Assembly (NCBI GenBank): GCA_027013145.1 | Contig: JALUXX010000056.1 | Location: forward strand, 88,975 to 152,974 | Direction: 5' to 3' | Length of the DNA: 64,000 bases | Source of the DNA: Gammaproteobacteria bacterium | Lineage (GTDB): Bacteria > Pseudomonadota > Gammaproteobacteria > 21-64-14 | In this document: positions 23,825 through 56,570 of the stretch, in pieces | Layout: each line of letters begins with the position of its first letter | Numbering within the stretch: the first letter of the stretch is position 1 | Translations under genes and position numbers: made by a program | Notes under the pieces: model-generated | The model's input: the letters and a program-made list of their open reading frames with translations, nothing else | Told to the model about the DNA's origin: nothing | Database searches by the model: none

Positions 23825-23870
23825 ATGGTGGGCGATGCTGGGATCGAACCAGCGACCCCTGCCGTGTGAA
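23825..23870. repeat. Distal att direct repeat, a partial duplicated 3' half of tRNA-Val(CAC)
   Basis: Identical to 56495-56540. Not part of a complete tRNA here. Confidence 0.8.
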
Positions 23871-24040
23871 TCGTATTCGCCGAATTTACGCCAACCCCTG
23901 CAAAAAACTATCATAAAACCAATTGGTTATAAACCCTCATTGTCGATCAACAGGTTACAAATAACATTTGCAAAGTCAATAACTTATACCGCATCAAACC
24001 GCAACCCGCCGCACCGATCCGCAGGGGAGTGGCGCGGCAG

Positions 24041-24060
24041 TGGAGCAAATTGGAGCAAAC
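24041..24060 (+). promoter_or_regulatory. Tandem TGGAGCAAA(T/C) motif, a candidate arm-type recombinase/AlpA site. A second copy pair lies at 56430-56450.
   Basis: tggagcaaattggagcaaac sits ~170 bp inside the distal att. ttggagcaaattggagcaaa sits between the int start and the tRNA at the other end, in the same orientation. Confidence 0.4.
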
Positions 24061-24154
24061 CTGAGTGTTCCACTCAGGAAGGAGCCGGCCCCGCCTCAAT
24101 TCGCTCGCCATTCCCTATACAGGTCGTCCCCAATCGCTTCAACGGAGATGACCC

Positions 24155-24400
24155 ATGATCGAAGACAAGCCCCTGCTGACGAAACAGGACCTGCAACGAA
24201 TCCTAAGTATATCCGAACGCACCCTCGAAACGCGCGTTCGGCGCGGTGAGCTCCCCCCGCCAAGACGTCTCGGCGGGGGGCGCCGGGTCTACTGGGAGGC
24301 GCGGTCCTTCCGCGCGTGGCTTCGCACCCAGTTTGCCTCTGCAGCGCCTGCGAGCCCGCGCCGCCGCGGCCGGCCTCGGAATTCGGAACACTCCAGGTAG
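24155..24400 (+). CDS. AlpA-family phage/island transcriptional regulator (excisionase-like HTH)
   Basis: MIEDKPLLTKQDLQRILSISERTLETRVRRGELPPPRRLGGGRRVYWEARSFRAWL is the AlpA/Xis-type MerR-like HTH. A GGAGA RBS precedes it, and it follows an AT-rich segment. Confidence 0.75.
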   Translation: MIEDKPLLTKQDLQRILSISERTLETRVRRGELPPPRRLGGGRRVYWEARSFRAWLRTQFASAAPASPRRRGRPRNSEHSR

Positions 24401-25185: not shown

Positions 25186-26187
25186 ATGAACCGCGCGGAG
25201 CGCATTTACCGGCTGCATGCCGTCCTCGCCAGGGGGCGGACGGTTTCGATGCGCAGGCTCATGGAGGAATTGGATGCTTCCCGCGCCACGGTGGTGCGCG
25301 ACATTGCGTATCTGCGCGATTTCATGGGTGCCCCCATCCGCTACGATCGCGAGCGTAACGGCTACGGGTATGAGCCCGACGCACCGGAGTTTCAACTCCC
25401 CGGTCTGTGGTTCAACGACAGCGAGCTCTACGCGCTCCTTGCCAGCGAGCAATTGCTGGATGCGGTGCAGCCGGGCCTTCTTGGTCCTTATATTGGTCCG
25501 CTCAAGGCGCGTATCCGCGGGTTGCTTGAGCAGAGCGGTCATACCGCGGATCTCGTCAGCTCCCGCGTTTTGCTCCGCCCCTTCGCCCGGCGCCAGGTAG
25601 ATGACGAAATCTTCGGGCGCGTGTCCGCCGCGGTGCTGAGCGGGCATACGCTCGAAATTCAGTACCACGGCCGCGAACGCGAGGCGGTCAGCCGGCGGCG
25701 GATCCACCCCTACCGGCTGCTCCACTATCGCGACAACTGGTACCTGATCGCTTGGTGTGAACGGGCCCGTGGACTACGGACATTTTCCCTGGATCGCGTC
25801 CTTGCGGCCGCCGACACCGGGCAGGCCGTGCGCAAAGTCGAGGAAGCTACGCTCGACCGTCATCTCGGGGCCAGCTTCGGCATTTTTACCGGCGAGGCGA
25901 GTGCTTGGGCAGTTCTCCGGTTCACGCCGGAGCGTGCCCGCTGGGTTGCCGATGAGAACTGGCACCCGGACCAGATTGGGCGATGGGTCGGAGAGAGCTA
26001 CGAACTCCAGGTTCCGTACTCTGATGCGCGCGAGCTTCTGATGGATATCTTGAAGTACGGCCCCGATGTCGAGGTCCTGGCCCCGGATTCGTTGAGAAGC
26101 ATCGTCGCGGAGCGGCTATGCCGCGCGGCGGCTCGCTACGGCACTGCCCCGCATCCACCCCGTCCGGCCGGACCCGAAGCGGCGTGA
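25186..26187 (+). CDS. WYL-domain transcriptional regulator (HTH-WYL-WCX), a putative regulator of the adjacent cas operon
   Basis: N-terminal wHTH (MNRAERIYRLHAVLARGRTVSMRRLMEELDASRATVVRDIAYLRD), central WYL region (HPYRLLHYRDNWYLIAWCERARGLRTFSLDRV) and a C-terminal extension. Located immediately upstream of cas3. Confidence 0.75.
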   Translation: MNRAERIYRLHAVLARGRTVSMRRLMEELDASRATVVRDIAYLRDFMGAPIRYDRERNGYGYEPDAPEFQLPGLWFNDSELYALLASEQLLDAVQPGLLGPYIGPLKARIRGLLEQSGHTADLVSSRVLLRPFARRQVDDEIFGRVSAAVLSGHTLEIQYHGREREAVSRRRIHPYRLLHYRDNWYLIAWCERARGLRTFSLDRVLAAADTGQAVRKVEEATLDRHLGASFGIFTGEASAWAVLRFTPERARWVADENWHPDQIGRWVGESYELQVPYSDARELLMDILKYGPDVEVLAPDSLRSIVAERLCRAAARYGTAPHPPRPAGPEAA

Positions 26188-26981: not shown

Positions 26982-29384
26982 ATGGCATTTCACGATTTCT
27001 TCAACGAAGCATATGGCAAATCCGGCGATCGGGCGTTCGAGCCATACTCTTACCAACGTCGTCTAGCTGAAGAGCCATGGCCGCATCTGCTAGACGTGCC
27101 GACCGGCATGGGAAAAACCGCGGCGGTGGTCCTTTCCTGGATATGGAAGCGTGGCTGGCGGCAAGGTGCGCGCGGCGGCGGACTCGATCCTCAAACTCCG
27201 CGCCGTTTGGTCTACTGCCTGCCCATGCGCGCGCTGGTAGAACAGACAGTGGCCAATATAAAGAGCTGGCTGAAACACCTCGATCTATGCGGCGAGCCCG
27301 GTGAAAAAAAGATCAGCATCAACGTTCTGATGGGCGGCGATGAGCACGCCCGCAAGGCCGAATGGACGAGCTATCCAGAAGAAGACGCCATTATCGTCGG
27401 TACGCAGGATATGTTGCTCTCGCGCGCCCTGATGCGCGGCTATGGTATGAGCCGCCACCAATGGCCCGTCCACTTCGCGCTGTTGCACAATGATGCGCTG
27501 TGGGTATTTGACGAAGTTCAGTTGATGGGTGCGGGGTTGGTCACTTCTGCTCAATTGGAGGCCTTCCGCCGCGATTTTCCACTTGCCAAAAACAGTCGTA
27601 CGCTCTGGGTGTCCGCCACGCTGAATCGCGACTGGCTGGGCACGGTGGACTTTCAGCCCCACATAGATATGCTTATCACGCACGCAATCGGGAACGAAGA
27701 CCGGCAGCAGGCCGGTGACCGGCTGCAGGCGCAGAAGTCGCTTGCGAAAGCCGATATTTCGCTGTCGCAGGACGCCGGCAACAAGGCGGGGTTGCAAACG
27801 TACCTGGAGAACCTGCGCGACCTGGTGCTGCAAGCGCACGATCCCGCTACGCAAACGCTGGTCATCGTTAATCGCGTCGAACGGGCGCAGCGCTTGTTTC
27901 GGCTGCTGCGTGACAGCCGGCCGGACAAGGCTGATCTTCTGGTCCATGCCCGGTTCCGAGCCGCCGAACGTTCCGAGCAAGCGAGCTGTCTGCGCGATGA
28001 CGATAATGTAGACCGCATCGTCGTCGCCACACAGGCCGTCGAGGCTGGCGTGGACATTTCCTCAAAAATATTGGTGACCGAGCTGGCGCCATGGCCTTCC
28101 ATGGTGCAACGCTTCGGTCGCTGCAATCGATATGGAGAGCACAATGCGACAGGCGCGCGCATCCTGTGGGTGGATATCGAGGATGACAAGGGCTTGTCGC
28201 TTCCCTACGAGCGCGAAGCGCTATCCATTGCGCGTGACAAGCTGAATGGGCTTGATAACGCTTGTCCGCAACACCTTCCGCCCACCGATACGGCGCGACT
28301 GCTCACCGCCGTGCTGCGCCGCAAGGATCTGCTCGACCTGTTCAATACCGAGCCCGACCTGTCCGGCTTCGACGTGGACGTTTCCGATTACATCCGTGAC
28401 ACCGGAACGCCCAGCGTGCAAGTATTCTGGCGCGAATTCGGGAACGATCCGAACACCCCAGAACCGCAAGGCAGGCCTAGTCGCAGAGACCTATGTCCCG
28501 CGTCTCTAAGCCAAGCCAGGGAATTCGCCAAGCGCAAAGACGTTACTCTTTGGTGCTGGGATATGCTTGACCGCCGATGGGCGAAGCTCATACGCGATCC
28601 TCGTCCCGGGATGATCTTGCTCGCACATTCGGTAAGCGGAGGTTATGACAGAGATATTGGCTTCGATCCGGCATTAAAAACACCTGTTTCCGCCATTGAG
28701 GTCGAACAGGTACCCGAAGAAGACGCCTTTTCCGAAGACTGGCGTTCATATCAGAACAAGCCAGTGCCACTGGCCGATCATTTGAGCCACGTGGCTGCCC
28801 AAGCTGACAAACTATGCTTGGCGGTGGGTGAGACATCACATCGCGGCATCGTTGTACGTGCCGGACGCTGGCACGATCTCGGCAAAGCGCACGAAATCTT
28901 CGACGCCACCATGCATGCTTGCGACAAGGCGCCTGCCGGCTTTCTCGCCAAATCGCCCTGCAATGGTCGGCACAGTCGCAAGTTCTTCCGTCACGAACTG
29001 GCCTCCATGCTCGGCTGGTTGGCCCAGCACAATGGTGAACCCGATGCTGATCTGATCGCCTACCTGATTCTGGCCCACCACGGCAAGGTGCGCATGAGCC
29101 TGCGCGCTATGCCTGGTGAAGAAGCGGGCAATGGCGTCAAGCGCTTCGCACGTGGTATCTGGGAAGGTGACGCCCTGCCCGCATTGGGTTTCGATGGTGA
29201 GCACAGCAATGCAACCACACTCAAGCTTGCGCTGATGGAAATCGGCGAAGGCGAGCAAGGACCTTCCTGGACCGAGCGCAGCCTGAACCTGCTGGATCAC
29301 CACGGTCCGTTCCGATTGGCGTGGTTGGAAACCTTGGTGCGCTTGGCCGACTGGCGCGCTTCGGCTGAGGAGCAGCAGCCGTGA
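26982..29384 (+). CDS. cas3: Cas3 helicase-nuclease with C-terminal HD domain (type I-G/I-U architecture)
   Basis: Helicase motif I VPTGMGKT and DEAH-like DEVQ. C-terminal HD motifs (GRWHDLGKAHEIF, LILAHHGKVR) follow the helicase, which is the I-U/I-G hallmark. Confidence 0.85.
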   Translation: MAFHDFFNEAYGKSGDRAFEPYSYQRRLAEEPWPHLLDVPTGMGKTAAVVLSWIWKRGWRQGARGGGLDPQTPRRLVYCLPMRALVEQTVANIKSWLKHLDLCGEPGEKKISINVLMGGDEHARKAEWTSYPEEDAIIVGTQDMLLSRALMRGYGMSRHQWPVHFALLHNDALWVFDEVQLMGAGLVTSAQLEAFRRDFPLAKNSRTLWVSATLNRDWLGTVDFQPHIDMLITHAIGNEDRQQAGDRLQAQKSLAKADISLSQDAGNKAGLQTYLENLRDLVLQAHDPATQTLVIVNRVERAQRLFRLLRDSRPDKADLLVHARFRAAERSEQASCLRDDDNVDRIVVATQAVEAGVDISSKILVTELAPWPSMVQRFGRCNRYGEHNATGARILWVDIEDDKGLSLPYEREALSIARDKLNGLDNACPQHLPPTDTARLLTAVLRRKDLLDLFNTEPDLSGFDVDVSDYIRDTGTPSVQVFWREFGNDPNTPEPQGRPSRRDLCPASLSQAREFAKRKDVTLWCWDMLDRRWAKLIRDPRPGMILLAHSVSGGYDRDIGFDPALKTPVSAIEVEQVPEEDAFSEDWRSYQNKPVPLADHLSHVAAQADKLCLAVGETSHRGIVVRAGRWHDLGKAHEIFDATMHACDKAPAGFLAKSPCNGRHSRKFFRHELASMLGWLAQHNGEPDADLIAYLILAHHGKVRMSLRAMPGEEAGNGVKRFARGIWEGDALPALGFDGEHSNATTLKLALMEIGEGEQGPSWTERSLNLLDHHGPFRLAWLETLVRLADWRASAEEQQP

Positions 29385-29879
29385 AGCTCGCTGCCTTCGA
29401 CGCAGTCGCAAAGGCGCTGGATGCCGCACAGGTACGCTACCTCGTGGCCGGCGGTCTCGCCGTCAACGCGCACGGCTACGTCCGTTTGACCATGGACATC
29501 GATCTGGTGATCGCGCTGGATGCCGCCAATATCCGCCAAGCGTTCCAAGCCCTGGCAGGGATCGGTTATCGCCCCACCGTGCCGATCGACGCGGACGCCT
29601 TCGCCAGACCGGAACAACGCCAGCGCTGGCGGGAAGGAAAGGGCATGCAGGTGCTCAATTTCCAAAGCGACGCCTTCCCTGGCACCTCGGTGGACGTATT
29701 CGTCTACGAACCGTTCGATCTCGCAGAAGAATACGACATCGCCCTGTGTGGCGAACTGTTGCCGGGCATTTACGTGCGCTTTGTGTCCATCCCTACCCTG
29801 ATTCGCATGAAGCAAGCGGCTGCCCGCCCGCGCGACCTGGACGACATCCAGCACCTCAAGTGGTTGCAGGAGAATCCCG

Positions 29880-29887
<8 letters not shown>
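29381..29887 (+). CDS. Minimal nucleotidyltransferase-fold protein inserted between cas3 and csx17 (function unknown)
   Basis: 168 aa. LVAGGLAVNAHGYVRLTMDIDLVIA resembles the hG[GS]...DhDh NTase motif, and the later IRMKQAAARPRDLDDI resembles NTase C-terminal motifs. Its start overlaps the cas3 stop and its stop overlaps the csx17 start. Confidence 0.45.
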
Positions 29888-33411
<3,524 letters not shown>

Positions 33412-33414
33412 ATC

Positions 33415-34905
33415 ATGCTCGCCTTGTCCTTCACCTTTCCCGCGGGACGCTACCATGCCACACCCTGGGACCGGCATGTCAACGAAGGCGCCGTGGCATG
33501 GCCGCCGGAACCATGGCGGATCCTTCGCGGGCTGATTGCCACTTGGCATTGCAAGGTCAAATACAGCGGAAGGTATAGCGAAGCCGCACTGCTAGGCCTG
33601 ATCGAAGCGTTGACGCAGGAGCTGCCTGAATACGGGCTACCCACGGCGAGTCACAGCCATACTCGTCATTACATGCCGCAGTTCGCGACTGATAAGACGT
33701 CGCTGGTCTTGGACGCGTTCACAGGTGTCAAACGTGACGAGGCATTGACCGTGGTTTGGCCGAATGCAGAGCTTTCCAAGGACCAAGTTGATCTGCTGGA
33801 CGAGCTGTTGTTCGTCATGGGCTACCTTGGTCGCGCTGAATCCTGGGTGGAGGCAAAGCGCCTCACCGATGCGCCGGAAGTCAACTGTAAGCCCGACGCA
33901 ACGCCGCTGGATACCGGAACCGGCGAGCTGAAAGGTGAAACTGTAACCCTCTACGCCCCCTTGTCGCCGAACGAATACCAGTCACTGCGCCAGAGGTTTC
34001 TTGCCGACAAAAAGTCTGCAAAGAAGCTGGAAACGACGCTTCCTGAAGGATTGCTTCACGCGCTCAGCGTGGATACAGCGGAACTGCGCAAGCAGGGCTG
34101 GAGCCAGCCGCCCGCCGCACGCAGGGTCAGCTACGTGCGCCCTGTCGATGCACTTCGGCCGCGCTACGCCACGCCTCGCATACAGGTCCCCGATGCCACC
34201 ACCGGGAGTTTTATTGTCGTCGGCAAACCTTTGCCCCGAGTGGAGGAGGCGTTACGCATCGGCGAGCTGATGCGCATGGCGGTCATGAGTCAGGCGAAGC
34301 GCATATGCGGCGAAGACAAGGTGCCGGCCATTCTCTCAGGTCATGAAATGCCTGAAGGCAATCGTCATCGACACGCCTTTTACCTGCCCTGGGACAGCAA
34401 CCACGACGGGCGCATCGACCGCGTGGTGGTTCACGTGCCGGATGGCATGGAGGCTGACCAGCAGCGGATTGTCGAAAGCGTCAGAAGGCTATGGAGTCGA
34501 GACGGTGGCGAGTGGCGTCTGGTTTTGGAGAGTATCGGCGGTACTGGAATCGCGAACACTCTGACACAACCCAGCAGGGTTTGGGAGTCCGTCACGCCGT
34601 ACCTGCATCCCTGGCACGTCAAGAAGCATTTTGGGGTTGTGGCGCAGATCAAACGCGAATGCCGCGAGCGCGGCTTGCCCGAGCCGGCGATTCTGGAATC
34701 GTTCGATAAAGTGGAGGTGGGCAAGAACCGGGAACGACGCCCGATTCATTTCCGGCGCTTCCGCAACCGACGCGGCTTCACGCAACCCGACCGATTGGGC
34801 AGCTTCTGGCGCCTTAGTTTTCCGGAGCCTGTGGAAGGACCGCTAGCCCTTGGGTTCGCTTGCCACTTTGGCCTTGGGCTTTTCGTTCCTGTCGGCGATA
34901 CCTGA
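33415..34905 (+). CDS. csb2: Csb2 (Cas5-Cas6 fusion, type I-G)
   Basis: 496 aa. N-terminus MLALSFTFPAGRYHATPWDRHVNEGAVAWPPEPWRILRGLIATWH is typical of Csb2/GSU0054. Glycine-rich C-terminal loops and an AGGAGG RBS. In I-G loci the Cas6 function resides here. Confidence 0.7.
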   Translation: MLALSFTFPAGRYHATPWDRHVNEGAVAWPPEPWRILRGLIATWHCKVKYSGRYSEAALLGLIEALTQELPEYGLPTASHSHTRHYMPQFATDKTSLVLDAFTGVKRDEALTVVWPNAELSKDQVDLLDELLFVMGYLGRAESWVEAKRLTDAPEVNCKPDATPLDTGTGELKGETVTLYAPLSPNEYQSLRQRFLADKKSAKKLETTLPEGLLHALSVDTAELRKQGWSQPPAARRVSYVRPVDALRPRYATPRIQVPDATTGSFIVVGKPLPRVEEALRIGELMRMAVMSQAKRICGEDKVPAILSGHEMPEGNRHRHAFYLPWDSNHDGRIDRVVVHVPDGMEADQQRIVESVRRLWSRDGGEWRLVLESIGGTGIANTLTQPSRVWESVTPYLHPWHVKKHFGVVAQIKRECRERGLPEPAILESFDKVEVGKNRERRPIHFRRFRNRRGFTQPDRLGSFWRLSFPEPVEGPLALGFACHFGLGLFVPVGDT

Positions 34906-35125
34906 GCAACTTTTGATCTGGAGGTTTGGAATAGCCAGCTCATGCACCTGCTCGGTTAGGGGATGTTTGAAGCGCATGTTCTTAGCCACCTATTGCGTTT
35001 CGCCGCTGTTTTGTGGCGGAGGCAGCACACGGTTACCAAGCCATCCACGAGATGGCAAAGGACTTTGGTATCGGGAGAGCTGTGAGTTTGTAGCGGCAGT
35101 TTTTCCATAGGCGCGGCAGCGACGA

Positions 35126-35527
35126 CTAGAGGCGAATGACCCGAACGAGTTTTCCGAGGGCGGCGAAGTCGGACGGGTTGCGGGTATAGAGCGGTAAGCC
35201 GTTGGCCGCAGCGGTCGCGGCGATGAGCAGGTCGGCAAGGCGGGCGCGGGGCGCTTGGCCCGCCGCGCGCACGGCAGCGAAGGCGCGGCCGTACATGCGC
35301 GCGGCATCGGCATCGAAGGGCAGGGGATCCCAGGTCGCCGCGGCCCATTGCAGGCGATCCTGGCGGCGGGCGCGCTCATCCGCATCGCGTGTGGCGTGCG
35401 GCCCGGCTGCGAGTTCGGCGAGCGTCACGGCGGAGATGGCGGATTCGTCCGGAAGCAGGGATGCGTCGATTACGTCGTGGTCGATGACCACCGACGTATC
35501 CAGCAGGCCGCGGCTCGGCTCAGCCAT
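35126..35527 (-). CDS. vapC: VapC toxin (PIN-domain ribonuclease)
   Basis: MAEPSRGLLDTSVVIDHD... with acidic PIN residues (D at the N-terminus, ...AELAAG..., ...DLLIAATA...NGLPLYTRNPSDF). Its start overlaps the antitoxin stop (ATGGCTGA). Confidence 0.8.
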   Translation of the reverse strand: MAEPSRGLLDTSVVIDHDVIDASLLPDESAISAVTLAELAAGPHATRDADERARRQDRLQWAAATWDPLPFDADAARMYGRAFAAVRAAGQAPRARLADLLIAATAAANGLPLYTRNPSDFAALGKLVRVIRL

Positions 35528-42049: not shown

Positions 42050-42076
42050 ATTCCAACTGGTGACGGTGTTTTTTTA

Positions 42077-43399: not shown

Positions 43400-43416
43400 T
43401 TTTTTTAGACCCATTA

Positions 43417-46771: not shown

Positions 46772-49700
46772 ATGTCGTCGGAGTCAATAGCAGCAAAGCG
46801 GTTCCTGCCGCGGGTGGTGAACGTCGTGCCTCGCCCGCGTTTGTTCGAGAAGTTGGATGGTATCCTCGCCGACTCAACGGTCGTGTGGGTGTCCGCTCCG
46901 GCTGGCTCTGGAAAGACCAGCTTGGTCGCGGGCTACTTGCAAGAGCGGGGCCTCTCCAGCCTGTGGTACCGCATCGAGGACGAGAATCCGGATTATAAAA
47001 GGTTCCAGGAACCGGACGGGACAAAAATGGGCGGGGAGGCGGCGGTAGCGACGCAGGTCGGGCTGGGCTGGGTTATTCGAACCCTCCAGCCGGGCACGAT
47101 TCTGGTGTTCGACAATTTGGCGTTTGCGCCCGACTCCACGCCCGTCGATTGGCTGCGGAAGGCTCCCTACGAACTTCCTCAGGGCAGCAAACTCATCGTA
47201 ATTTCCCGGGATAGCCCGCCCGCGGCGTTGGCTCGTCCGCGTATCAATGGGGCGCTGTTCGTTCTCGAGGGAGCCGAACTCCGCCTGACGGTCGAAGAGG
47301 CCCATGCCTTGGCCGATCTGCGCGCCGCGGAGGGCCGGCAGCCGCCGGCGGATACGATCCGCGCGATGTGGGAATGGGTGGACGGGTGGCCGGCGGGGTT
47401 CGCGGTGCTGTTCAACGGTCTCGGCGCCGGCGACTTATCAAGTCAGCCGCCGCCATGGCCCGACGAGCGCCTGCTGTTTGACTACCTGGCGGTCGAGGTT
47501 TTCGGGGCCCTGGCACACCACGAGCGGGATTTTCTGCGCTGCGTCTCCATCCTGCCCGTTGTGACGCCGGAGATCGCCGCGGCCGTTTGCGAAGTCCCGG
47601 ACACCGTGGCGATGCTGGAGTCCGTTTCTCGCCGGCTCGGGATATTCGTCCGTGAGATACCGCCGGGCGGGCGGAGTTATACCTTCTCCCCGATCTTCCG
47701 GGCATTCCTCGCCGAGCGGCAGCGGGAAGCGACGACCTCGGGCGAGCGGGGGGCGCTGGCACGCAACGCTGCCGATGCGCTTTCCAACGCCGGCAGGGTA
47801 GACGACGCCGTACACGTCCTTGCCACCCACGGCGAGTGGGCGGCGCTCGGCGCTCTGGTTTCCCGGGAAGCGCGCGGGCGCTTCGCCAAAGGCGACGGCG
47901 CATCCGTGCTGAGTTGGCTGAAACCGGTTCCGCCCGGTGTTTTGGAGAAGGATGCCGATCTCTGCTACTGCATGGGCGCGGCCAAGACCCCGCTCGATTT
48001 CGCCGAAAGTCTCAGATGGTTTGAACGCGCCTATACCCTGTACTCGGAACAGGGCGAGCGATTCGGGGCGCTGAACGCCTGGTCGGCGATCGTGGAGACG
48101 ATCTTCTTCCAGTGGGGAGACTTTTCGAAACTCAGGAGCTGGATCCATGTCGGGGAGAAGTTGTTGGCGGGCGGCTCGGACATACCGGACGGGCCCGTCG
48201 GACGGCGCGCGGTAGGCGCTATGTTCAACGCCCTGATGAACGGCCAGCCGGACCATCCGAAAATCGGCGCCTGGGCGCAGCGAATGCGCAGAATACTGCG
48301 CGAGATCGACGACGACAGCGAACGCCTCCTGATGGGGACGGGGCTTTTCATCTACTACACCAAGTGGCTGGGAGAGCACGGCCAGGCCGAGATCGTGCTG
48401 GAAATGCTCTGCCCGCCGCCGGAACGGAAGCCGCAGCTCACGCCTATGGCGCGGATCTTGCTGGCCATGGCGCAGTGCACCTACCACTGGAACCGATACG
48501 AGCTGGCAGCTGCGGATAGCGCGATCCAGGACGGGTTCGCGACGGCGGAGCGCTGCGGTATCCGGATCTGGGACTTTCTTTTGCACGCGCAGCCCATTTA
48601 CGCGGGCCTGAGCAGCGGCGACCTTCCTAAGGCCGACCGCTACCTCTCCCGCATGCGGGAACTGCTTCCGAGGAGGGCGCCGTTGGACCATGCGCACTAC
48701 CACTATCTCGCGGGCTGGGAAGCGATGCTGCGGGAGGACTCTCATCGGGCGCTGGAGCACGTCCAATACGCCCTGGAACTGGTTACTGAGGCGAGGGGGC
48801 CGATGCAACACGCCTTGACCTGTCTGGCCATGGCGCAGGTTCGCCATACGCTGAAAGAGGATCAGCACATCCCCGCGCTATTGGCAGATGCGCGGAAGAT
48901 GGCTGAGGGGGCCGGCAGCGCGTTGCTGAAATTCCTGATCGCCTACTCGGAAGCCTGGTTTGCTCTTGATGAGGGAAATGGCGCCGCCTGCCGGGCATCG
49001 CTTTCCCGCGCGTTCGCTTTGGCCAGAGAGCATGGATATGTCAACTTCACATGGTGCATTCCGACCGTTCTGGTACGTCTGTGTGTGGAGGCGTTGAAAG
49101 CTGAAGTCGAGACGCCGTTTGTTCAGCGCCTTATCCGTTCCCGAGGCTTAAGGTGTAGCGCGCCGCCGGTACAGCTGGAACACTGGCCATGGAGTATACG
49201 GGTCTACACCCTGGGCCGGTTCGGCGTGGTGAAAGACGACACACCGCTCCGTTTCTCGGGGAAGGCACAGCGCAGACCGTTGCAGATGCTGAAAGTACTG
49301 ATCGCTTTAGGCGGCCGTGAGGTACCCGAAAGTCGCTTGAGCGAGATTCTTTGGCCCGATGCGGAGGGCGACAAGGCTCACTCGGCGTTTACGACCACTT
49401 TGGCACGCCTGCGCAAGCTGGTCGGTGAGGAGTCGCTGTGTTTTCGGGACGGCCGATTGTCCGTTGACGCCCATCGCTGCTGGGTGGATGCGTGGGTTCT
49501 TCAGCGGCTGCTGGGAGAAGCGGAGACTGCTCCGAGCAGCGAAAGTGCACGGGCCCTGATGCACAAGGCACTGGATCTTTATCGCGGAGCGTTTTTGGGT
49601 TCCGAAGAAGATACCCCATGGGTTCGGGGCGCGCGTGAGCGCGTACGCAGGCGTCTCGTTCAGACGGTGAAGGTCGGTGCACGCTATTTTGGTTCGGGTC

Positions 49701-49774
49701 CAGCTCGCACTCAGACCGCGGCTATGCTCAGCCAATTTGTAGCCGTAGACCCCAGCCTGGAAGATATAATCTGA
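46772..49774 (+). CDS. MalT-like STAND NTPase regulator with C-terminal SARP module (OmpR-type winged helix + BTAD)
   Basis: N-terminus RFLPRVVNVVPRPRLFEKLDG...VVWVSAPAGSGKTSLVAGYL...SLWYRIEDENPD parallels the MalT pre-NBD, Walker A and WYSLDE region. Long helical/TPR-like middle. C-terminus YTLGRFGVVKDDTPLRFSGKAQRRPLQMLKVLIALGGREVPESRLSEILWPD...LARLRKLVG...YRGAFL matches the trans_reg_C + BTAD pattern of SARP regulators. Confidence 0.7.
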   Translation: MSSESIAAKRFLPRVVNVVPRPRLFEKLDGILADSTVVWVSAPAGSGKTSLVAGYLQERGLSSLWYRIEDENPDYKRFQEPDGTKMGGEAAVATQVGLGWVIRTLQPGTILVFDNLAFAPDSTPVDWLRKAPYELPQGSKLIVISRDSPPAALARPRINGALFVLEGAELRLTVEEAHALADLRAAEGRQPPADTIRAMWEWVDGWPAGFAVLFNGLGAGDLSSQPPPWPDERLLFDYLAVEVFGALAHHERDFLRCVSILPVVTPEIAAAVCEVPDTVAMLESVSRRLGIFVREIPPGGRSYTFSPIFRAFLAERQREATTSGERGALARNAADALSNAGRVDDAVHVLATHGEWAALGALVSREARGRFAKGDGASVLSWLKPVPPGVLEKDADLCYCMGAAKTPLDFAESLRWFERAYTLYSEQGERFGALNAWSAIVETIFFQWGDFSKLRSWIHVGEKLLAGGSDIPDGPVGRRAVGAMFNALMNGQPDHPKIGAWAQRMRRILREIDDDSERLLMGTGLFIYYTKWLGEHGQAEIVLEMLCPPPERKPQLTPMARILLAMAQCTYHWNRYELAAADSAIQDGFATAERCGIRIWDFLLHAQPIYAGLSSGDLPKADRYLSRMRELLPRRAPLDHAHYHYLAGWEAMLREDSHRALEHVQYALELVTEARGPMQHALTCLAMAQVRHTLKEDQHIPALLADARKMAEGAGSALLKFLIAYSEAWFALDEGNGAACRASLSRAFALAREHGYVNFTWCIPTVLVRLCVEALKAEVETPFVQRLIRSRGLRCSAPPVQLEHWPWSIRVYTLGRFGVVKDDTPLRFSGKAQRRPLQMLKVLIALGGREVPESRLSEILWPDAEGDKAHSAFTTTLARLRKLVGEESLCFRDGRLSVDAHRCWVDAWVLQRLLGEAETAPSSESARALMHKALDLYRGAFLGSEEDTPWVRGARERVRRRLVQTVKVGARYFGSGPARTQTAAMLSQFVAVDPSLEDII

Positions 49775-49918
49775 CCGCGGGTTGTCGAGTCACCGGTAGA
49801 ACTAGTAAGGTGTCATTCTCTAATCTATAGCATTCCATTCAGGCCGACTGAAGTCCGTTCGTTCCCGCACTCATGGTTGGTTCCTCAGGGGATCCTCACA
49901 GCGCGAGCCTGGATGCGC

Positions 49919-49955
49919 ATCTGTGACCTATCTGTGACACACCCGTCGGTATACT
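49919..49955 (+). promoter_or_regulatory. Two direct repeats with 11-bp phasing (ATCTGTGACCT ATCTGTGACAC) followed 9 bp later by TATACT. Candidate SARP-type activator site plus -10 element.
   Basis: Seen directly at 49919-49940 and 49950-49955, between the STAND-SARP regulator gene and the downstream low-GC operon. SARP proteins bind direct repeats with 11-bp periodicity overlapping the -35 region. Confidence 0.4.
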
Positions 49956-50298
49956 CGCATAGGCCTCCCGAAAAGGACTTGGCCATCCGGCGGAAATGGC
50001 AACTTTCAGCAGGCCGGATTCAATAAGCAGAAACGATCATTTTCACAAAAACGACCGAAAAGTTTTGGGCTGTGCAACTGAGATTGCTGATGGGGTACCA
50101 ATCTGTTCCAACCCTAAAGCTCGGCAACCGAGCATATCGAAGTACACTGGCGGCTTGTGTGGTGCGACGGCAAGTGCAGTCACGGGTTCGTCTGGAAGCC
50201 GCAACTCCGGCGAAGCGCCGCCGTGCTTTATACGAAGGGCTAACCTGGATTTCGATCCATAAAGGTGTCAGTGATGTTCCAAAATTACAAAGCCTCCT

Positions 50299-51123
50299 GT
50301 GGCAGAGGGCGGTAACATGCCGATCAAAATAAAAATTCCGTCGACGCTCCGACGGTATGCCGTATCCGTAAAGCAGATACCTGGAAGCTCCACTTCTAGA
50401 TTTATTTTTGTCATAGCTGTCTCCTTGCTCTCGTCCGCATGCAGTCCAATGACATTTACGCGCACTGTTATGGACTGGCAGCCCTACGACCACAATGAAA
50501 TGAGCCAAAGGAAGAGCGGCGTCGTAGCTCAGCTAAAGTGGATAACTCCAGGATCTCTTCCTTCCGACTTCTACTTCCGCGTCCAGGCCTGCAATAGGTA
50601 TGGGCAGCTGCTCGTTGATCAACTCGGCCACCCGGTATTTGAGAACGTCAGCCCAGCGAGCAATCAGCAGATGTGGGAGAAGATTGCGCTAACAAACAAC
50701 ACGCGGCATGTGATTCGCTTGAACCAAGTCGTCATCCGGCTGTTCGACCCCAATGGGAATCAAATCAGACCCCTGACCAGAAACGACGTTGCGTCCGCAT
50801 TTCTTCAGCGGCGCCCCTGTTCGTCGTCCAATATCGCGTTAGACGAGTTTCGCAGGATAAATATATTCAATAGAAATCTCGAAGTCGTGCCTGGAACGAC
50901 CTCCACTTTCTGGGTTGCATTCCCGACCGTAGCGGCAAATCTTCCAGGTGTTTGGAAATTTGCACTGTACGAAGTACCGGTCCGGGTTGATGCTACTGGC
51001 CGCGCGACTAAGACTACACAATTTGATATCCGGATGGTCGCCAAGGAGGTGGTGGAGACATATAGAGCGGCCAACATTTTCGCGCCGTCAGTTCTGGTCA
51101 GTGCGAAAACGAAAGCTCCGTAG
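50299..51123 (+). CDS. Hypothetical lipoprotein in a low-GC cargo segment
   Basis: Signal/lipobox FIFVIAVSLLSSAC. ~48% GC versus ~68% in the backbone. No recognisable domain. An internal Met (MPIKIKIP) is an alternative start. Confidence 0.5.
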   Translation: MAEGGNMPIKIKIPSTLRRYAVSVKQIPGSSTSRFIFVIAVSLLSSACSPMTFTRTVMDWQPYDHNEMSQRKSGVVAQLKWITPGSLPSDFYFRVQACNRYGQLLVDQLGHPVFENVSPASNQQMWEKIALTNNTRHVIRLNQVVIRLFDPNGNQIRPLTRNDVASAFLQRRPCSSSNIALDEFRRINIFNRNLEVVPGTTSTFWVAFPTVAANLPGVWKFALYEVPVRVDATGRATKTTQFDIRMVAKEVVETYRAANIFAPSVLVSAKTKAP

Positions 51124-51890
51124 TGTCTGGCGCCCAACCGCTCGGCGGCTGGTGTCGCATCGAGTCACATTTTGCCACCTTGGCAATCTTTCGGAGTTCA
51201 TTCGGAACCGAAAAATGACCGTGGAATAAAGCTGGAAAGATTCGGCGCACCGACCGTTTCTAAAAGGGATGGCGGATATTTGTATACCAGAATGTCCGTA
51301 CGATAGCGACAATCCGCGGAGGATATGAACCCGGCCGACAGGCGACAGCCTGGACGCTTGCCCCGGTACTTGGTGAGAGGGTGCGGCGAGTCCCGGATGG
51401 AAGCAATGGGGGATTCTGGGCTGAAAATCAACGGGTGCGTTGAATTCCACGTGTTTAAGGGATGGGAGGATCCGCCTGATTGCCGGGGCACTTGCAAGTG
51501 CTGGCGCAGGCTTCAATAAAGCAGGTTAACGGCACCTCGGATTTTCTGAGCGCGTGGCTAAGCGGTGCGGGCCAAGGAGTGCGTTGTGGGATGGGGGAGG
51601 TAAGACAGGCCCGGCCTATCGTGTGGGCTGATCGAAGGCTATGGGCCGCGTACAGTGGACCGGCGGCGCCTCCCGTTGGGTCCCGGGTTTTTTGTGCTGT
51701 GGGCGGTGCTCTGTACAGTTGGGCAATCGGGCTGGTCAAATTGCTGAGTGCCGGTTACGTAGGCCGGCGTGTCTGTCTGCATGGATAGATTTGGGGGCGG
51801 TGGTTGATGAGTGGAATTTAGACGTTAGAAGGGGCAATGGCCCAGCTGTGAGTGTCTGAGATGGTGTTTCGCTGGCAGGGGCGGGGGGCA

Positions 51891-54821
51891 ATGAAGAAGA
51901 TGCTAAAGCTTCTGAGAGCGGCATTGATGCTGGTCTTAACGATGCTTGTCGCCGCGTGTCAGAGCGGCGGAGGGTCGGGGGGGGCGGCGCCACCTGAGAC
52001 ATCGGCGACTTCGGTGATCTTGCGAATCGCGCCTTTCGGGAGCGGTAGCATCGTTAGCTTGCCCGACGGGATCGACTGTGGAACAGCCTGTTCGAGGTCT
52101 TTTCCGACCGGCACGAAGGTGGTGCTTACGGCCAATGCATCGCCTGGGGAGAAACTGGTCAACTGGGCGGGGTGCGATAGCAGCAGCGGAAATCAGTGCA
52201 CTGTAACTTTGGATCATCAGCGCTTGATCTTACCGACCTTTGCCTCATCGGCGCCGACCGAGATTCAGCCGTCAGTTGTAGTACTCAATGCCGCGACTAT
52301 CGGCGCAATCGTTAAACAAGTTGGGAGTATCTATTATTTTGCGCCTGGCACCACAGCCGCCTCGGATTTGCGGACGGGGAATGTAATTGTCAGGCACGGA
52401 ATGACTTCCTCCGGGGTGGATATAGGAATCCTTGCTCGAGTTGTTACTGTTACTAATGAACCCGATGGGACGATTGCGGTTTCGACGACTCCGGCTAGAC
52501 TAACGGATGTAATACAATCAGGCACCGTCTGGTACAGTGCGCCTCTTGTTCCGGCGCAACTCACGGCGGCAAAGGCGTTGGTGGCGGGAGTATCGGTAAC
52601 AGGCGCATCGGTGGCTTGTTCAGCGCACTCGACAAGCCAATTCGCCGTACCACTTAATCATGTTTTGGTCGGTAGCGGGGGAAATCAGATCACGATAAGC
52701 GGCTGCTTGAAGTTGTCCTTTGCGCCAGATTTCGCTCTTGATATTAGTCCGTTCTCTGGTGTCAGCGAATTCCGGGCAGCTCTTATCACGACGAGCAGCC
52801 AATCTCTAAATCTTGATGCCGCAACAGGGATCAGCCTTAACGCGCAAACGGCTATCGCGCGGTATTCTTTTAGTGCTATTCCTGTCTATCCGCCCTTTGT
52901 CTGGATTACCCCTACGGTAACCGTGTATCTGGGTACTCAGGTGCAAGCGGATGGCTCTGTGCATCTTGGCGTCATGGTACAGGAAGACGCGAAAGGGGGG
53001 GTGGAATATCGGCAGGGTATCGGTTGGGGGGCTATCGGTGAATTTACCCCGACCTTCACGGGACCGAGCTCTCAGTTCGCAGGCCAGGCGACTGCCACTG
53101 GCTACGTAGAACCGAACTTCTCAATGCCAGTCGACGGTCTGGCGGGCCCCTTTGTCGCATTAAAGGGCTACCTCCAAGGGGATTCTTGGGCCGCAACGGG
53201 AAGAAGTGACGCCGTAGGATGGGAATTATATGGAGGAGCTGCCGGGTACGCCGGGATGGCAGCCGAGCCTCTGGGGTGGAACCTGGGGGAGGTCCAGCTC
53301 CAACTCTTCGACGACCGGACTCTATTGGCGAGCAGCGTGGGTACGGTGGCGGATACGGCGCCGCCCTCGGTGCCCGAAAACGTTGTCGCCACGGCAGCTT
53401 CGCCCAGCGAGATCGACCTTTCCTGGGGTGCAGCTACGGACGATACTGCGGTCAAGAACTATAAGGTCTACGTGGGCGCCAATTTATGGAAGACCATTAG
53501 CGGTACATACGCTGCGGACAAAGGTATTCCGCCAGGAACGGAAGTCTGCTATTCGGTGGAGGCAGTGGACGAGGGTGGAAACGTTTCGGCGCCGTCAAAG
53601 ACGGTGTGTGCGACCACGCCGCTGGCGAACGATAGCACACCGCCCACCGCTACGACGGCCCCTAACATTACTGCTGTAACCTCCAATTCGGTGACGCTAT
53701 CCTGGAAGGCGGCGACTGACAATGTCGGTGTTGCGGGCTATACGGTCGATCGTAACGGGTCGCCGATCGCAACAGTGTCGACCACAGGATATACGGATAG
53801 CTCGCTTACGAAAGGTGCGAAGTACTGTTATACAGTCCAGGCATTCGACGCTGCGGGAAATGTTTCGGCGGCGAGTGGGCAAGCTTGTGCGACCACGGCA
53901 AGCGGTGGTGTGAGGACAGTGGACCTGTATGTCGTAAACGGAGCGCCCGTGGGCATCACCGGATCCGTATCGGTGATCGATCCTGCAATCGGAAAAATCG
54001 TCGGAAGTATTCCTGTGGGTACGGGCTCGGGTGACATTGCGGTGAGCTCGGACGGGAGCCGGGCCTATGTCACGAATTCTGTCGATAATACGGTCTCGGT
54101 CATCGATACCGCCACTGACCATGTAGTCGCGGTCGTACCTGTAGGCAACAATCCTTCGGGTGTTGCGGTGAGTCCCGATGGTGGGCAGGTCTACGTCATA
54201 AATACTCTACTATATCCTTCGGTGTCCGTGATTAGCGCCGCTAGCGATAAAGTGGTCGCGACGTGGCCTATGAGTGTTCCGGCCGCGGGTATTGCGGTGA
54301 GCCCAGATGGCAGTCACGTTTACATCACGGCTTTTGCTTCTCCCGCTACGATGTACGTGGTCAACGCCGCGAACGGTCAAGTCGTCGCGGGGGTCGACTT
54401 AAGTGCTGGCGCTGGGCCTGTTACAGTTAGTCCGGACGGAAGCAAGGTCTATATTCCGAACGATTCTGTGTTGTATGGAGCGCTATCGGTAATTGACGCG
54501 GCAACCGATAAGGTGGTTGGGACCGTGCCCGTAGGCGCCGGGCCCAATGCTGTTGCGGTGAGCCCAGACGGCAGCCGGGCCTACGTCGTGAACGGAGTGA
54601 GTGGTACGGTATCGGTGATTGACACGGCAACCGATAAGGTGGTTGGGACCGTGCCCGTAGGCGCCGGGCCCAATGCTGTTGCGGTAAGCCCGGACGGCAG
54701 CCAAGCCTACGTGGCGAATAGCCTGGAAGGTACAGTGTCTGTAATCGATACCGCGAGTGACGAAGTGGTCGTGACGTTGTCGGGGCTCTATAATCCATCA
54801 GGCATTGCGGTCGGGCCATGA
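51891..54821 (+). CDS. Large surface lipoprotein with Ig-like/fibronectin type III domains and a C-terminal YVTN-family beta-propeller
   Basis: Signal and lipobox MKKMLKLLRAALMLVLTMLVAAC. Fn3-like segments (PSVPENVVATAASPSEIDLSWGAATDDTAVKNYKVY; TAPNITAVTSNSVTLSWKAATDNVGVAGYTVDRNG). At least 7 tandem ~42-aa repeats of the form VSPDGS.AYV.N.....VSVIDTATDKVV.TVPVG..P..VAVSPDG form the YVTN beta-propeller. Confidence 0.7.
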   Translation: MKKMLKLLRAALMLVLTMLVAACQSGGGSGGAAPPETSATSVILRIAPFGSGSIVSLPDGIDCGTACSRSFPTGTKVVLTANASPGEKLVNWAGCDSSSGNQCTVTLDHQRLILPTFASSAPTEIQPSVVVLNAATIGAIVKQVGSIYYFAPGTTAASDLRTGNVIVRHGMTSSGVDIGILARVVTVTNEPDGTIAVSTTPARLTDVIQSGTVWYSAPLVPAQLTAAKALVAGVSVTGASVACSAHSTSQFAVPLNHVLVGSGGNQITISGCLKLSFAPDFALDISPFSGVSEFRAALITTSSQSLNLDAATGISLNAQTAIARYSFSAIPVYPPFVWITPTVTVYLGTQVQADGSVHLGVMVQEDAKGGVEYRQGIGWGAIGEFTPTFTGPSSQFAGQATATGYVEPNFSMPVDGLAGPFVALKGYLQGDSWAATGRSDAVGWELYGGAAGYAGMAAEPLGWNLGEVQLQLFDDRTLLASSVGTVADTAPPSVPENVVATAASPSEIDLSWGAATDDTAVKNYKVYVGANLWKTISGTYAADKGIPPGTEVCYSVEAVDEGGNVSAPSKTVCATTPLANDSTPPTATTAPNITAVTSNSVTLSWKAATDNVGVAGYTVDRNGSPIATVSTTGYTDSSLTKGAKYCYTVQAFDAAGNVSAASGQACATTASGGVRTVDLYVVNGAPVGITGSVSVIDPAIGKIVGSIPVGTGSGDIAVSSDGSRAYVTNSVDNTVSVIDTATDHVVAVVPVGNNPSGVAVSPDGGQVYVINTLLYPSVSVISAASDKVVATWPMSVPAAGIAVSPDGSHVYITAFASPATMYVVNAANGQVVAGVDLSAGAGPVTVSPDGSKVYIPNDSVLYGALSVIDAATDKVVGTVPVGAGPNAVAVSPDGSRAYVVNGVSGTVSVIDTATDKVVGTVPVGAGPNAVAVSPDGSQAYVANSLEGTVSVIDTASDEVVVTLSGLYNPSGIAVGP

Positions 54822-55342
54822 GCGCATGGTTTGCAGTAGCTGCGGCCGAAAAGGGCGGGGGTATCAACAGCCACTCTCGATAGGCGTATTGCTGGAGCTT
54901 AGTGATTTCTACGGGCGATATCATTGGCGTGCGGCTGGTAGATCATACTCCTCAGGCCAATGGGCTGTTGGGACGTGCAACGCGGCGGGCTATGCGGGGT
55001 TTTGCCATCTTTCTTATGGGGGGATAACGGAGGCGGTCCAGGAGTTGATCGCTCGATGGCGCGAAGGGATGTGGACGGGAATCGGATGCTGGTGCTAAGC
55101 AGCGCCGGTGGATTTGCCTAGAGCGTAGCCGTGGCGATCGTGTTTTCGTTGGAGGATTAATGGAAATTATCGAAAATTTCATGTGCGGAGACGGTCCTCG
55201 ATGATGCCTCTACCGGGTTCGGGTCCGGGAGGAAGATCTTTGACCTCGATTAGGCTCTGACCATAGTCAGACCATCGGTGATGATGTGGTCGCGACGTCC
55301 CGCGACCGCGGTTGAGCGGGAGTGTATGGCAAAACGAAAAGT

Positions 55343-56347
55343 TCAGGGCTTGGCAAGTTGGTCGAGCTTGTCTATGAGATGCTGGGTGCTTGGATGGGCA
55401 TAGCGCCGAAAGACCCGCATGTCCTTATGCCCACTGACCGCCATCGCCTCGATCACGTTCCAGCCGGCTTCCACCAGGCTGGATACGCGTTCGTGGCGCA
55501 GATCATGCAGTCGAAAATCCTCGAGTCTCGCCCGCATCCGCAGCCGCTTCCAGGCCAATTTCACCGCATTGACGGTGAGCCCCTCGAAGACGTATGTCCC
55601 GCTGCCCGTGAGTCTGCGCAGCCCGCGCAGCGCGGCGGTCGCGCGTCGTGAGAGCGGCACTTGCCGGCCCTGGCCGTTCTTCGTCTGTGCGTCTCGCAGG
55701 CCGATGACACGCTGCTTCAAGTTGACCTGTCGCCACTCGATCCCGAGCAGCTCGCCGCGGCGCATGCCGCTCTCGCGCGCCAGGGTCACGAAGGTCCGGA
55801 ACAGCGGGTTCCGGCACCGGCGAAGCGCGGCGTCCAGGCGTCGGCGCTCGTCGGGATCCAGGCGACGGGTGCGGTTGGGCGAATTCTTGGGGCGATCGAC
55901 ATCCGCCATCGGGTCGTGGGGGAGGAGATGGCGTTTGCGTGCCCGACGCAGGGCGCGGGAGAGGATGGAAAGCTCGCGGTTGACCGTGGAGCCCGAGACC
56001 GTGGTCAGCCGCGACTCGATGTAGTCTTCGATGACGCCGGCGTTGATCTCGGCCAATGACAGCGTGGCGAGGGGGTGGCGCATCATCGCCAGTACGCGTT
56101 TGTTTTCGATGGCGGCCCCGCGGTGCAATGGGACGACCTTGCGCCGGTAGTCCTCCAGGACATCGCTGAGTGTCGTCTGTTGGGCGGCCAGGGTTTCGGG
56201 AAGGGCGCCGAAGTCGATATCCCGTTCTTTGGCGCGGACCCAGGTCTCGGCCTCGCGGCGGGTGTCGAAGGTGGCGGTGAGTGTCGCATACCCGCGCCGG
56301 CGGATTCGGGCTTGATAGGCGCGACCGCGCCGCGTGATGGATGCCAT
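55343..56347 (-). CDS. int: Tyrosine-type phage integrase / site-specific recombinase
   Basis: MASITRRGRAYQARIRRRGY... N-terminal arm-binding/SAM-like domain. C-terminal catalytic region with RHDLRHERVSS...VSGHKDMRVFRRYAH (R..HxxR..Y). GAGGAG RBS. Start trimmed to the ATG at 56347. Confidence 0.85.
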   Translation of the reverse strand: MASITRRGRAYQARIRRRGYATLTATFDTRREAETWVRAKERDIDFGALPETLAAQQTTLSDVLEDYRRKVVPLHRGAAIENKRVLAMMRHPLATLSLAEINAGVIEDYIESRLTTVSGSTVNRELSILSRALRRARKRHLLPHDPMADVDRPKNSPNRTRRLDPDERRRLDAALRRCRNPLFRTFVTLARESGMRRGELLGIEWRQVNLKQRVIGLRDAQTKNGQGRQVPLSRRATAALRGLRRLTGSGTYVFEGLTVNAVKLAWKRLRMRARLEDFRLHDLRHERVSSLVEAGWNVIEAMAVSGHKDMRVFRRYAHPSTQHLIDKLDQLAKP

Positions 56348-56495
56348 ATCGCTTCTCCTCGTCTGTGGGGACAAGGGGTGTAGCGAATGGCGAGGCGGAT
56401 TCGACCGGCGGTCGGGCGAATTTGACCGAATTGGAGCAAATTGGAGCAAATTGCCCCGACGTGCCCGGCCCGGATGCCGTAAGTCATTGAAAACA

Positions 56496-56570
56496 TGGTG
56501 GGCGATGCTGGGATCGAACCAGCGACCCCTGCCGTGTGAAGGCAGTGCTCTCCCGCTGAGCTAATCGCCC
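56496..56570 (-). tRNA. tRNA-Val (anticodon CAC), the island integration target
   Basis: Reverse complement GGGCGATTAGCTCAGCGGGAGAGCACTGCCTTCACACGGCAGGGGTCGCTGGTTCGATCCCAGCATCGCCCACCA. Anticodon loop TTCACAC. Acceptor stem GGGCGAT/ATCGCCC. Its 3' 46 nt are duplicated at 23825-23870. Confidence 0.85.

Follow-up and report, generated by a model that had tools for sequence, protein, structure and literature searches.

A 32.7-kb island at tRNA-Val(CAC) carrying a complete type I-G CRISPR-Cas system in an uncultured high-GC gammaproteobacterium

CRISPR-Cas systems travel on genomic islands: in Vibrionaceae, they are found in integrase-bounded islands, several of which lie at tRNA genes and some of which have been shown to excise (PMC6360697). 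In type I-G systems, toxin-antitoxin (TA) genes have been reported between csb2 and cas4-1 at the Thioalkalivibrio sulfidiphilus locus (PMC9638904). Here we describe a 64-kb stretch of DNA from an uncultured gammaproteobacterium (assembly GCA_027013145.1, contig JALUXX010000056.1, positions 88,975 to 152,974; "the window" below), in which 32.7 kb between two copies of the 3′ part of tRNA-Val(CAC) hold a tyrosine integrase gene and a complete type I-G system. We put at about 85% the probability that this interval is a non-conjugative genomic island, functionally a defence island, which entered the tRNA-Val(CAC) gene by tyrosine-integrase recombination with the type I-G system as its cargo. An earlier annotation of the same DNA (the original prediction) had also proposed an integrative island but called CRISPR-Cas on tRNA-targeting islands uncommon; such islands are better documented than that (PMC6360697).

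Borders and recombination system

Two sites delimit the island:

23825–23870, no strand assigned: attL, a 46-bp copy of the 3′ part of tRNA-Val(CAC), a fragment (exact repeat; no tRNA call).
56495–56570, minus strand: attR (56495–56540) inside the intact tRNA-Val(CAC) gene (56496–56570) (ARAGORN, Rfam, exact repeat).

The 46-mer, ATGGTGGGCGATGCTGGGATCGAACCAGCGACCCCTGCCGTGTGAA, occurs in two exact copies, at 23825–23870 and 56495–56540 (46/46 identity, 0 mismatches); these are the only two in the 64-kb window, which holds no third copy even at up to 3 mismatches, and none was seen in 100 shuffles. The original prediction had named this direct repeat, and had regarded copies at unrelated positions as evidence against an island. 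ARAGORN and Rfam both call tRNA-Val(CAC) at 56496–56570 on the minus strand, and neither calls a tRNA at 23825. The repeat spans tRNA nucleotides 31–75, from the first base of the anticodon loop through CCA, plus 1 base past the CCA, and includes the anticodon within the 7-nt anticodon loop TTCACAC, the variable loop, the T arm and the 3′ strand of the acceptor. Because the repeat is a 3′ segment of the tRNA, what lies at the left is a fragment, whereas the copy at the right belongs to an intact gene; together the direct repeats enclose 32.7 kb. The borders predict an attB junction composed of CTGACAGGGGGTGG, the 46-mer and GGCAGTGCTCTCCC, and an attP junction composed of GTCATTGAAAAC, the 46-mer and TCGTATTCGCC. 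Tandem integration of two elements was also considered and rejected, because an internal att copy is absent at up to 3 mismatches.

The elements expected to act on these sites lie just inside the two ends:

55343–56347, minus strand: tyrosine integrase (int), 334 aa, intact (Pfam Phage_integrase; PHROG 1 integrase, 5.6e-57).
24155–24400, plus strand: AlpA/excisionase-like HTH_17 protein, 81 aa (Pfam HTH_17, 1.4e-8; PHROG 66 "excisionase and transcriptional regulator", 2e-10).
24041–24059, plus strand: tandem TGGAGCAAA-T-TGGAGCAAA, candidate P′ arm site, 171 bp inside attL (9-mer count, shuffles).
56432–56450, plus strand: tandem TGGAGCAAA-T-TGGAGCAAA, candidate P arm, between the int start and the tRNA (conserved in sister islands L089 and L094).

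The int open reading frame (ORF) extends over 55343–56449, and an independent gene call, together with a good Shine-Dalgarno sequence, sets its start at 56347; the distance from this start to the tRNA 3′ end is 148 nt, close to the 150 bp first estimated. The catalytic set R196, K223, H281, R284, H307 and Y316 is invariant in an alignment with 15 homologues (A1). At the opposite end from int, where the original prediction had placed an AlpA-like regulator, the HTH_17 gene does begin, 284 nt inside attL; its product is a likely candidate for a recombination directionality, or excision, factor. The 9-mer TGGAGCAAA has four copies in the window, one tandem pair just inside each end, with 10-bp spacing and the same orientation at both ends (chance expectation, 0.31 copies; 0/100 shuffles reach four). 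By their layout, the pairs are likely to be arm-type integrase-binding sites, one candidate on each attP arm; the presence of a tandem pair at both ends and its conservation in sister islands tie both ends to one recombination system. In a separate search, the arm-site 20-mer was found in two AT-rich IMG/VR contigs, as part of unrelated iteron-like runs that are not accompanied by a related integrase, and these matches were set aside as coincidental.

The composition of the DNA changes exactly at the repeats. GC content is 60.1% (0.601) between them, 69.0% (0.690) in the left flank and 68.8% (0.688) in the right flank, and GC content at third codon positions (GC3) is 0.59–0.81 in island genes vs 0.85–0.93 in flank genes; the transposase of an ISL3-family insertion sequence (IS) inside the island, with a GC3 of 0.84, is near the host value. 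The windowed GC and codon-usage comparison proposed with the original prediction has come out in its favor. The anatomy of a tRNA-targeting island is thus present and intact: the repeat, a regenerated tRNA beside int, the catalytic residues, a distal excisionase-like gene and a compositional break.

Is tRNA-Val(CAC) the habitual target of this integrase? Its nearest homologues are 54–59% identical, and two of them (P0005 in L089 and P0003 in L094, 57–59% identity) share the orientation seen here, each with its start ~130 bp downstream of a tRNA-Val(CAC) gene, and belong to sister islands whose cargo differs from the cargo here. In both, a tandem ATTTGCTCCAATTTGCTCCA is kept at the same position, between tRNA-Val and int (~1700–1720 in L089, ~140–160 in L094). 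The survey was widened to 80 more distant metagenomic relatives (28–46% identity) and the look-up loci: 15 surveyed loci besides this one adjoin tRNA-Val(CAC) in the same orientation, several of them with the same gltX/tRNA-Ala/tRNA-Glu neighbors; a further 32 adjoin other tRNAs; and in 6 loci tRNA 3′-suffix repeats of 29–68 nt bound islets of 3.5–10 kb. None of the surveyed integrase loci has cas genes or other genes of this island. The survey therefore places the integrase in a tRNA-targeting clade that has a tRNA-Val(CAC)-specific branch and exchangeable cargo; judged by where its members lie, the integrase clade is specific for tRNA-Val(CAC). Horizontal acquisition by a tRNA-targeting element, as originally claimed, gains support from these relatives at tRNA-Val(CAC) and from the conserved 9-mer pairs.

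The sister islands deserve a closer look in their own right. A second block, TTCGCTACACsCCTTGT, is also conserved in L089 and L094, at the same position immediately ahead of the ribosome-binding site of int. The cargo of L094 (1611–11250) comprises an Old-family nuclease (E 3e-55), an LmuB-like SMC ATPase with a metallophosphatase, a CapP-like M78 peptidase and a ResIII/restriction-endonuclease protein; defence-like cargo is therefore found at least once more within this branch of the integrase. In L088, the cargo consists of HTH, IS3, Phd, KfrA and HSP70-like genes.

What did the island land in? The left flank encodes a UDP-sugar dehydrogenase, an epimerase and a Bac_transf sugar transferase, and the right flank has wzx and glf; the interval from the island to wzx holds tRNA-Val, gltX, tRNA-Ala and tRNA-Glu. 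The original prediction took this arrangement to mean that the island splits a set of polysaccharide genes. This part of it has to be abandoned: no operon was cut, because the conserved tRNA-Val/gltX/tRNA-Ala/tRNA-Glu block already separated the sugar-gene groups, and the island widened a pre-existing gap. The block (56496–58425; tRNA-Val(CAC) on the minus strand, gltX, tRNA-Ala(GGC), tRNA-Glu(UUC)) is syntenic in distant Gamma- and Betaproteobacteria (L005, L006, L016, L021, L030, L097, L106 and L125), and several metagenomic loci have a related integrase beside tRNA-Val.

A course of events can be proposed. An attP carrying a 46-bp tRNA copy, from the anticodon loop to CCA, would have recombined with the 3′ half of the tRNA-Val(CAC) gene; because attP brings the tRNA 3′ copy, integration would have rebuilt an intact tRNA by int (attR) and left the 46-bp fragment at the distal end (attL). 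The tandem TGGAGCAAA sites on both arms would likely bind the integrase, and the AlpA-like protein would likely serve in excision. The island may have taken up and moved the I-G module with its WYL gene in one piece, and a host-like ISL3 element would have jumped into spacer 48 of the array after arrival.

Cargo and mobility

The I-G module occupies the following positions in the island:

25186–26187, plus strand: WYL-domain regulator (HTH_11-WYL-WCX), part of the I-G module (Pfam; PADLOC CRISPR-associated WYL, 1.6e-46).
26982–29384, plus strand: cas3g, helicase and C-terminal HD nuclease, 800 aa (TIGR02621, 783 bits, cut-off 400; HD at residues 597–797).
29880–32363, plus strand: csx17/cas8g, long form, 827 aa, with an N-terminal helical extension of ~75 aa (TIGR04113, 529 bits, residues 81–817).
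32389–33411, plus strand: csb1/cas7g (TIGR02570, Pfam Cas_GSU0053; start from an independent gene call).
33415–34905, plus strand: csb2 (cas5-cas6 fusion), 496 aa (TIGR02165, 218 bits, full length).
35126–35795, minus strand: vapC (PIN, 35126–35527) and a Phd-family antitoxin gene (35520–35795) (Pfam PIN, 1.9e-10, and PhdYeFM, 4.1e-7; NCBIfam VapC, phd_fam).
36384–38093, plus strand: cas4g/cas1g fusion, 569 aa (NF049935, 826 bits, cut-off 560).
38098–38388, plus strand: cas2 (Pfam CRISPR_Cas2, TIGR01573).
38591–43889, plus strand: CRISPR array, 55 repeats of 36 nt (GTATTCCGCAGCATCACGCTGCGGCCTCATTGAAGC) and 54 unique spacers (Rfam CRISPR-DR16, plus strand).
42077–43399, plus strand: ISL3-family IS, 1323 bp, inside spacer 48 (Pfam DDE_Tnp_ISL3, 5e-69).

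All six type I-G genes score above the NCBIfam curated cut-offs and are full length relative to their homologues; apart from the IS in its array, the system is complete. The original prediction had listed this cas set with a 55-repeat array, as well as the WYL, vapBC and ISL3 genes, and each item has its family match; it had not pointed out that ISL3 lies within the array and vapBC within the cas operon, nor listed an extra 168-aa gene between cas3 and csx17. A WYL gene is also found upstream of cas3g in L176, L177 and L180. The vapBC pair sits inside the cas operon on the opposite strand, in the csb2-cas4/1 gap; each related I-G locus examined has an opposite-strand type II TA pair in this gap, and its family varies: PIN/Phd here and in L177 (15299–15926), PemK/RHH in T. 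thiocyanodenitrificans (L176, 15299–15957).

The array follows a leader at 38389–38590, its first repeat 202 bp past cas2. Of the repeats, 54/55 are identical and the last one (43854) is degenerate, with 2 mismatches; the 54 spacers are all different, 35–39 nt long, with a mean GC of 57%. Unique spacers between identical repeats suggest recent activity. No spacer has a self-target in the window or in any fetched locus, none of the 54 matched an INPHARED phage, and spacers 1, 2 and 4, compared with IMG/VR with every sixth base wild-carded, had no match there. The ISL3 element is recognizable from its 24-nt terminal inverted repeats (83% complementary) and from an 8-bp target duplication, TTTTTTTA, at 42069–42076 and 43400–43407; once the element is removed, spacer 48 is restored to 36 nt. 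Its target is the T-rich middle of the spacer, and the insertion cuts the last seven repeats off from the leader. With a GC3 of 0.84, the element resembles the host rather than the rest of the island, a hint that it originated in the resident genome and inserted after the island had arrived.

Where did the module come from? Csx17 is 81% identical to the T. thiocyanodenitrificans protein and 82% to one on an ENA contig, and protein identity to the Thioalkalivibrio locus L176 is 72–81% across the operon. L176 is surrounded by mlaA, pld and mpl genes, and no integrase lies closer to it than 10 kb. Since the closest I-G relatives, in Thioalkalivibrio and other proteobacteria, reside in ordinary chromosomal contexts, the island probably captured the module, which moved as a single unit. 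High I-G identity set against GltX identity of at most 70% among the matches listed gives a pattern that fits, as a pattern and not as proof, horizontal movement of the WYL-to-array block, captured here by an integrase island.

The remainder of the cargo lies between the array and int:

46772–49774, plus strand: MalT-like STAND NTPase, 1000 aa, with a C-terminal SARP/BTAD DNA-binding part (NCBIfam MalT and AfsR, partial matches; Pfam BTAD).
50299–54821, plus strand: lowest-GC cargo, a 274-aa protein (50299–51123) and a 989-aa fn3 and beta-propeller ORF (51852–54821) (GC3 0.59–0.60; Pfam, NCBIfam).

The GC content of this block (46772–54821) falls to 0.51, and an independent gene call gives the fn3/beta-propeller ORF 615 aa only, vs 989 aa. 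The STAND/SARP, beta-propeller, 231-aa and 274-aa ORFs have no significant match in PADLOC or PHROGs, and several ORFs in this remainder of the island match no family. Among the island ORFs tested, there is no Pfam, NCBIfam or PHROG match to a relaxase, type IV secretion system or coupling protein (oriT was not searched for); as transfer genes are absent, movement from cell to cell would need a helper or transformation.

Could the interval then be a degraded prophage or phage satellite at tRNA-Val, with CRISPR-Cas as a moron-like gene set? The integrase does match PHROG 1, and its family includes phage enzymes, such as the 42% identical integrase of Ralstonia phage Anchaing; however, in PHROGs and Pfam only int and xis match among the ORFs tested, with no match to capsid, tail, terminase, lysis, primase or repressor genes, and the attP junction is absent from IMG/VR (0 matches). 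We regard a phage origin as very unlikely.

A chimeric contig, joined through the 46-mer or through the CRISPR array, would also produce a foreign block between repeats. The source is a metagenome, the Logan contigs (k=31) break inside the 46-mer, as expected for a repeat and uninformative on the empty site, and the ENA contigs break off, one within the array and the other within the IS. An independent ENA assembly nevertheless spans both junctions: one contig runs from the sugar transferase through attL and cas2 to the first 11 spacers, the other from inside ISL3 through the cargo, int, tRNA-Val and gltX to wzx. The two contigs therefore reproduce both chromosome-island junctions; both end in the same CRISPR repeat family, and the arm-site pairs mark the two island ends as parts of a single system. 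An assembly artefact is hardly credible.

Several observations do weigh against an island that arrived, and can still leave, as one unit. Neither an empty attB nor an attP circle was found. The organism is known, from exact-protein look-ups with flank and island genes, in two samples only, and the island is present in each. Among the matches listed from GTDB species representatives, GltX identity reaches 69–70% at best; no close relative genome was recovered, and the loci of these GltX matches contain neither a related integrase nor the sugar transferase. The attB-specific 68-mer had 0 matches in JGI metagenome contigs, a result that is weak without an occupied-junction control. As no spacer matched any tested phage or viral contig, CRISPR activity is unproven. 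The I-G module has a GC3 below that of its flanks also in genomes without this island: its gene set is lower than its neighbors in T. thiocyanodenitrificans and in an Azospira-like metagenome-assembled genome (MAG). Because the same module is low in GC3 off the island as well, the low GC3 of the cas genes alone is weak evidence of transfer, and the argument from composition rests on the shift of the whole interval at the repeats. Finally, GC is a mosaic within the island (0.51–0.67), and its cargo may therefore have been gathered stepwise. For want of a close relative, neither an empty site nor an excised form came to light; that the island is still able to excise, that it has a means of passing from cell to cell and that its CRISPR system is active, we therefore infer.

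Two side observations belong here. In off-island I-G loci, cas GC3 is 0.67–0.80 vs 0.84–0.90 in chromosomal neighbors (L176, 7133–18045; L180, 7461–17989), and the module looks foreign in composition in every host examined. A second GltX variant (P0362, cluster of L003:8181–9629), within 90% identity, is present on a 1.7-kb Logan contig; it hints at a related strain, and the contig is too short to reveal the state of its tRNA-Val site.

These points bear most directly on a composite, or fossil, island, in which the outer att sites are real and the content stems from several events (I-G capture, IS insertion, acquisition of the low-GC beta-propeller block), so that the element may no longer excise or transfer. 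The internal spread of GC, with GC3 ranging from 0.59 (50299–54821) to 0.81–0.84 (int, ISL3), would be expected of such a history; sister islands of the same integrase clade without cas genes, the lack of transfer genes and the presence of the island in both known samples point the same way. Set against this are the missing third att copy, the intact int and xis-like genes and the arm-type sites on both arms. We consider a composite history possible but not probable; it would refine, not replace, the reading of the interval as a non-conjugative island that entered through tRNA-Val(CAC).

A MenT1-like nucleotidyltransferase in the I-G operon

One gene of the operon remains to be introduced:

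29381–29887, plus strand: Pol-beta-type nucleotidyltransferase (NTase; MenT1/AbiEii-like), 168 aa (Pfam AbiEii, 1.7e-6; MenT1 fold match; PDB profile, 3.9e-6).

The NTase gene lies between cas3g and csx17, overlapping the stop of the former and the start of the latter. Its GG-x13-DxD plus D pattern is intact, and the signature residues G24-G25, D39, D41 and D105 are invariant. The AlphaFold model (pLDDT 80) best matches the MenT1 toxin (E 3e-6, TM 0.6), and the sequence profile likewise finds the MenT1 tRNA-nucleotidyltransferase toxin as its best match. The gene occupies the same position in L176 (9502–10008), L179 (9499–10008), L180 (10001–10510), L181 and L182, and hosts of NTase-bearing I-G loci include T. 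thiocyanodenitrificans, Dyella and Azospira-like MAGs. It is far better conserved than the cas genes: 91% vs 72–81% identity in Thioalkalivibrio, and 78% vs 51% for Csx17 in Dyella. No mention of an NTase in the I-G operon was found in the I-G literature searched.

What might hold a toxin-like protein in check? No separate antitoxin gene for the NTase is present at the I-G locus. Across many I-G loci, the NTase co-occurs with the Csx17 N-terminal extension of ~75 residues (29880–30110): by a co-location proxy, the size of the longest contig, 28 are shared by the NTase and long-form Csx17 and 0 by the NTase and the short form, and L177, a short-form locus, has no NTase gene. The extension is conserved among long-form homologues and is predicted to form a helical hairpin followed by a disordered linker. 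Compared with Pfam, NCBIfam, PDB and MenA1, it matches no known family, only designed coiled coils at E>0.01. In fold and sequence family, the NTase here is the same as the MenT1 toxin of Mycobacterium tuberculosis MenAT1, and it is likewise accompanied by a short helical segment of roughly MenA1 size, which follows it (PMC10435456); unlike in MenAT1, this segment is a fusion to Csx17, comes after the NTase instead of before it and has no detectable similarity to MenA1.

The NTase may possibly be a toxin whose partner is fused to Cas8g. A bolder proposal is that two embedded toxin modules, a MenT1-like NTase neutralized by the Cas8g extension and a swappable TA slot, hard-wire the I-G operon against loss or inhibition and, together with the tRNA-Val(CAC) integrase, make up a self-stabilizing portable CRISPR package; we think this rather unlikely. 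If it held, loss, truncation or sequestration of Cas8g (e.g., by an anti-CRISPR) would free the toxin and lead to growth arrest or abortive infection, and the second embedded toxin module would be the type II TA slot that separates the interference genes from the adaptation genes. As a possible addiction or back-up module that is open to testing, the highly conserved MenT-like NTase, linked in a large I-G subclade to a Cas8g extension, is a side lead perhaps more useful than the island itself.

Comparison with described systems

Williams is said to have set out, in NAR in 2002, sublocation classes within tRNA genes, among which the block from the anticodon loop to the 3′ end is reportedly the classic integrase sublocation. 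Islands and prophages that integrate there are like the element described here in the start of the block, in an int gene beside the regenerated tRNA and in arm-type repeats on both attP arms; unlike them, this island has no phage or conjugation module, and its crossover lies somewhere within 46 bp.

The I-G module itself closely follows the Thioalkalivibrio plan (T. sulfidiphilus HL-EbGr7, PMC9638904; L176): the order WYL, cas3g, cas8g, cas7g, csb2, TA genes, cas4/1, cas2 and array is the same, the repeats are likewise 36 nt ending in ATTGAAGC, and the TA genes likewise lie between csb2 and cas4/1. The differences are that the module here sits in an integrase-bounded island, that its TA pair is PIN/Phd and not PemK/RHH, that its array is split by ISL3, and that an xpf-like (HHH) or HIRAN gene is absent.

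The nearest counterparts to the island as a whole are those of Vibrionaceae (VPI-6, GI-24 and islands at tRNA-Met, tRNA-Leu and other tRNA loci; McDonald et al. 2019, PMC6360697), which likewise combine a tyrosine integrase, attL and attR, a GC content below that of the host and a whole CRISPR-Cas system as cargo. The Vibrio islands carry types I-F, I-E, II-B and III, whereas here a type I-G system is found at tRNA-Val(CAC) of an uncultured high-GC gammaproteobacterium; their excision and empty sites were demonstrated experimentally or by strain comparison, whereas neither was found for this island. It is therefore a clean example of a known route by which defence systems spread and not a new kind of element: a well-delimited, whole type I-G system as the cargo of a tRNA island in a poorly sampled high-GC lineage. 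Beyond this single instance, the comparison outlines an integrase clade that is specific for tRNA-Val(CAC) and has conserved candidate arm-type sites and variable defence cargo. Both points add to, without changing, the picture of defence systems carried on small non-conjugative islands.

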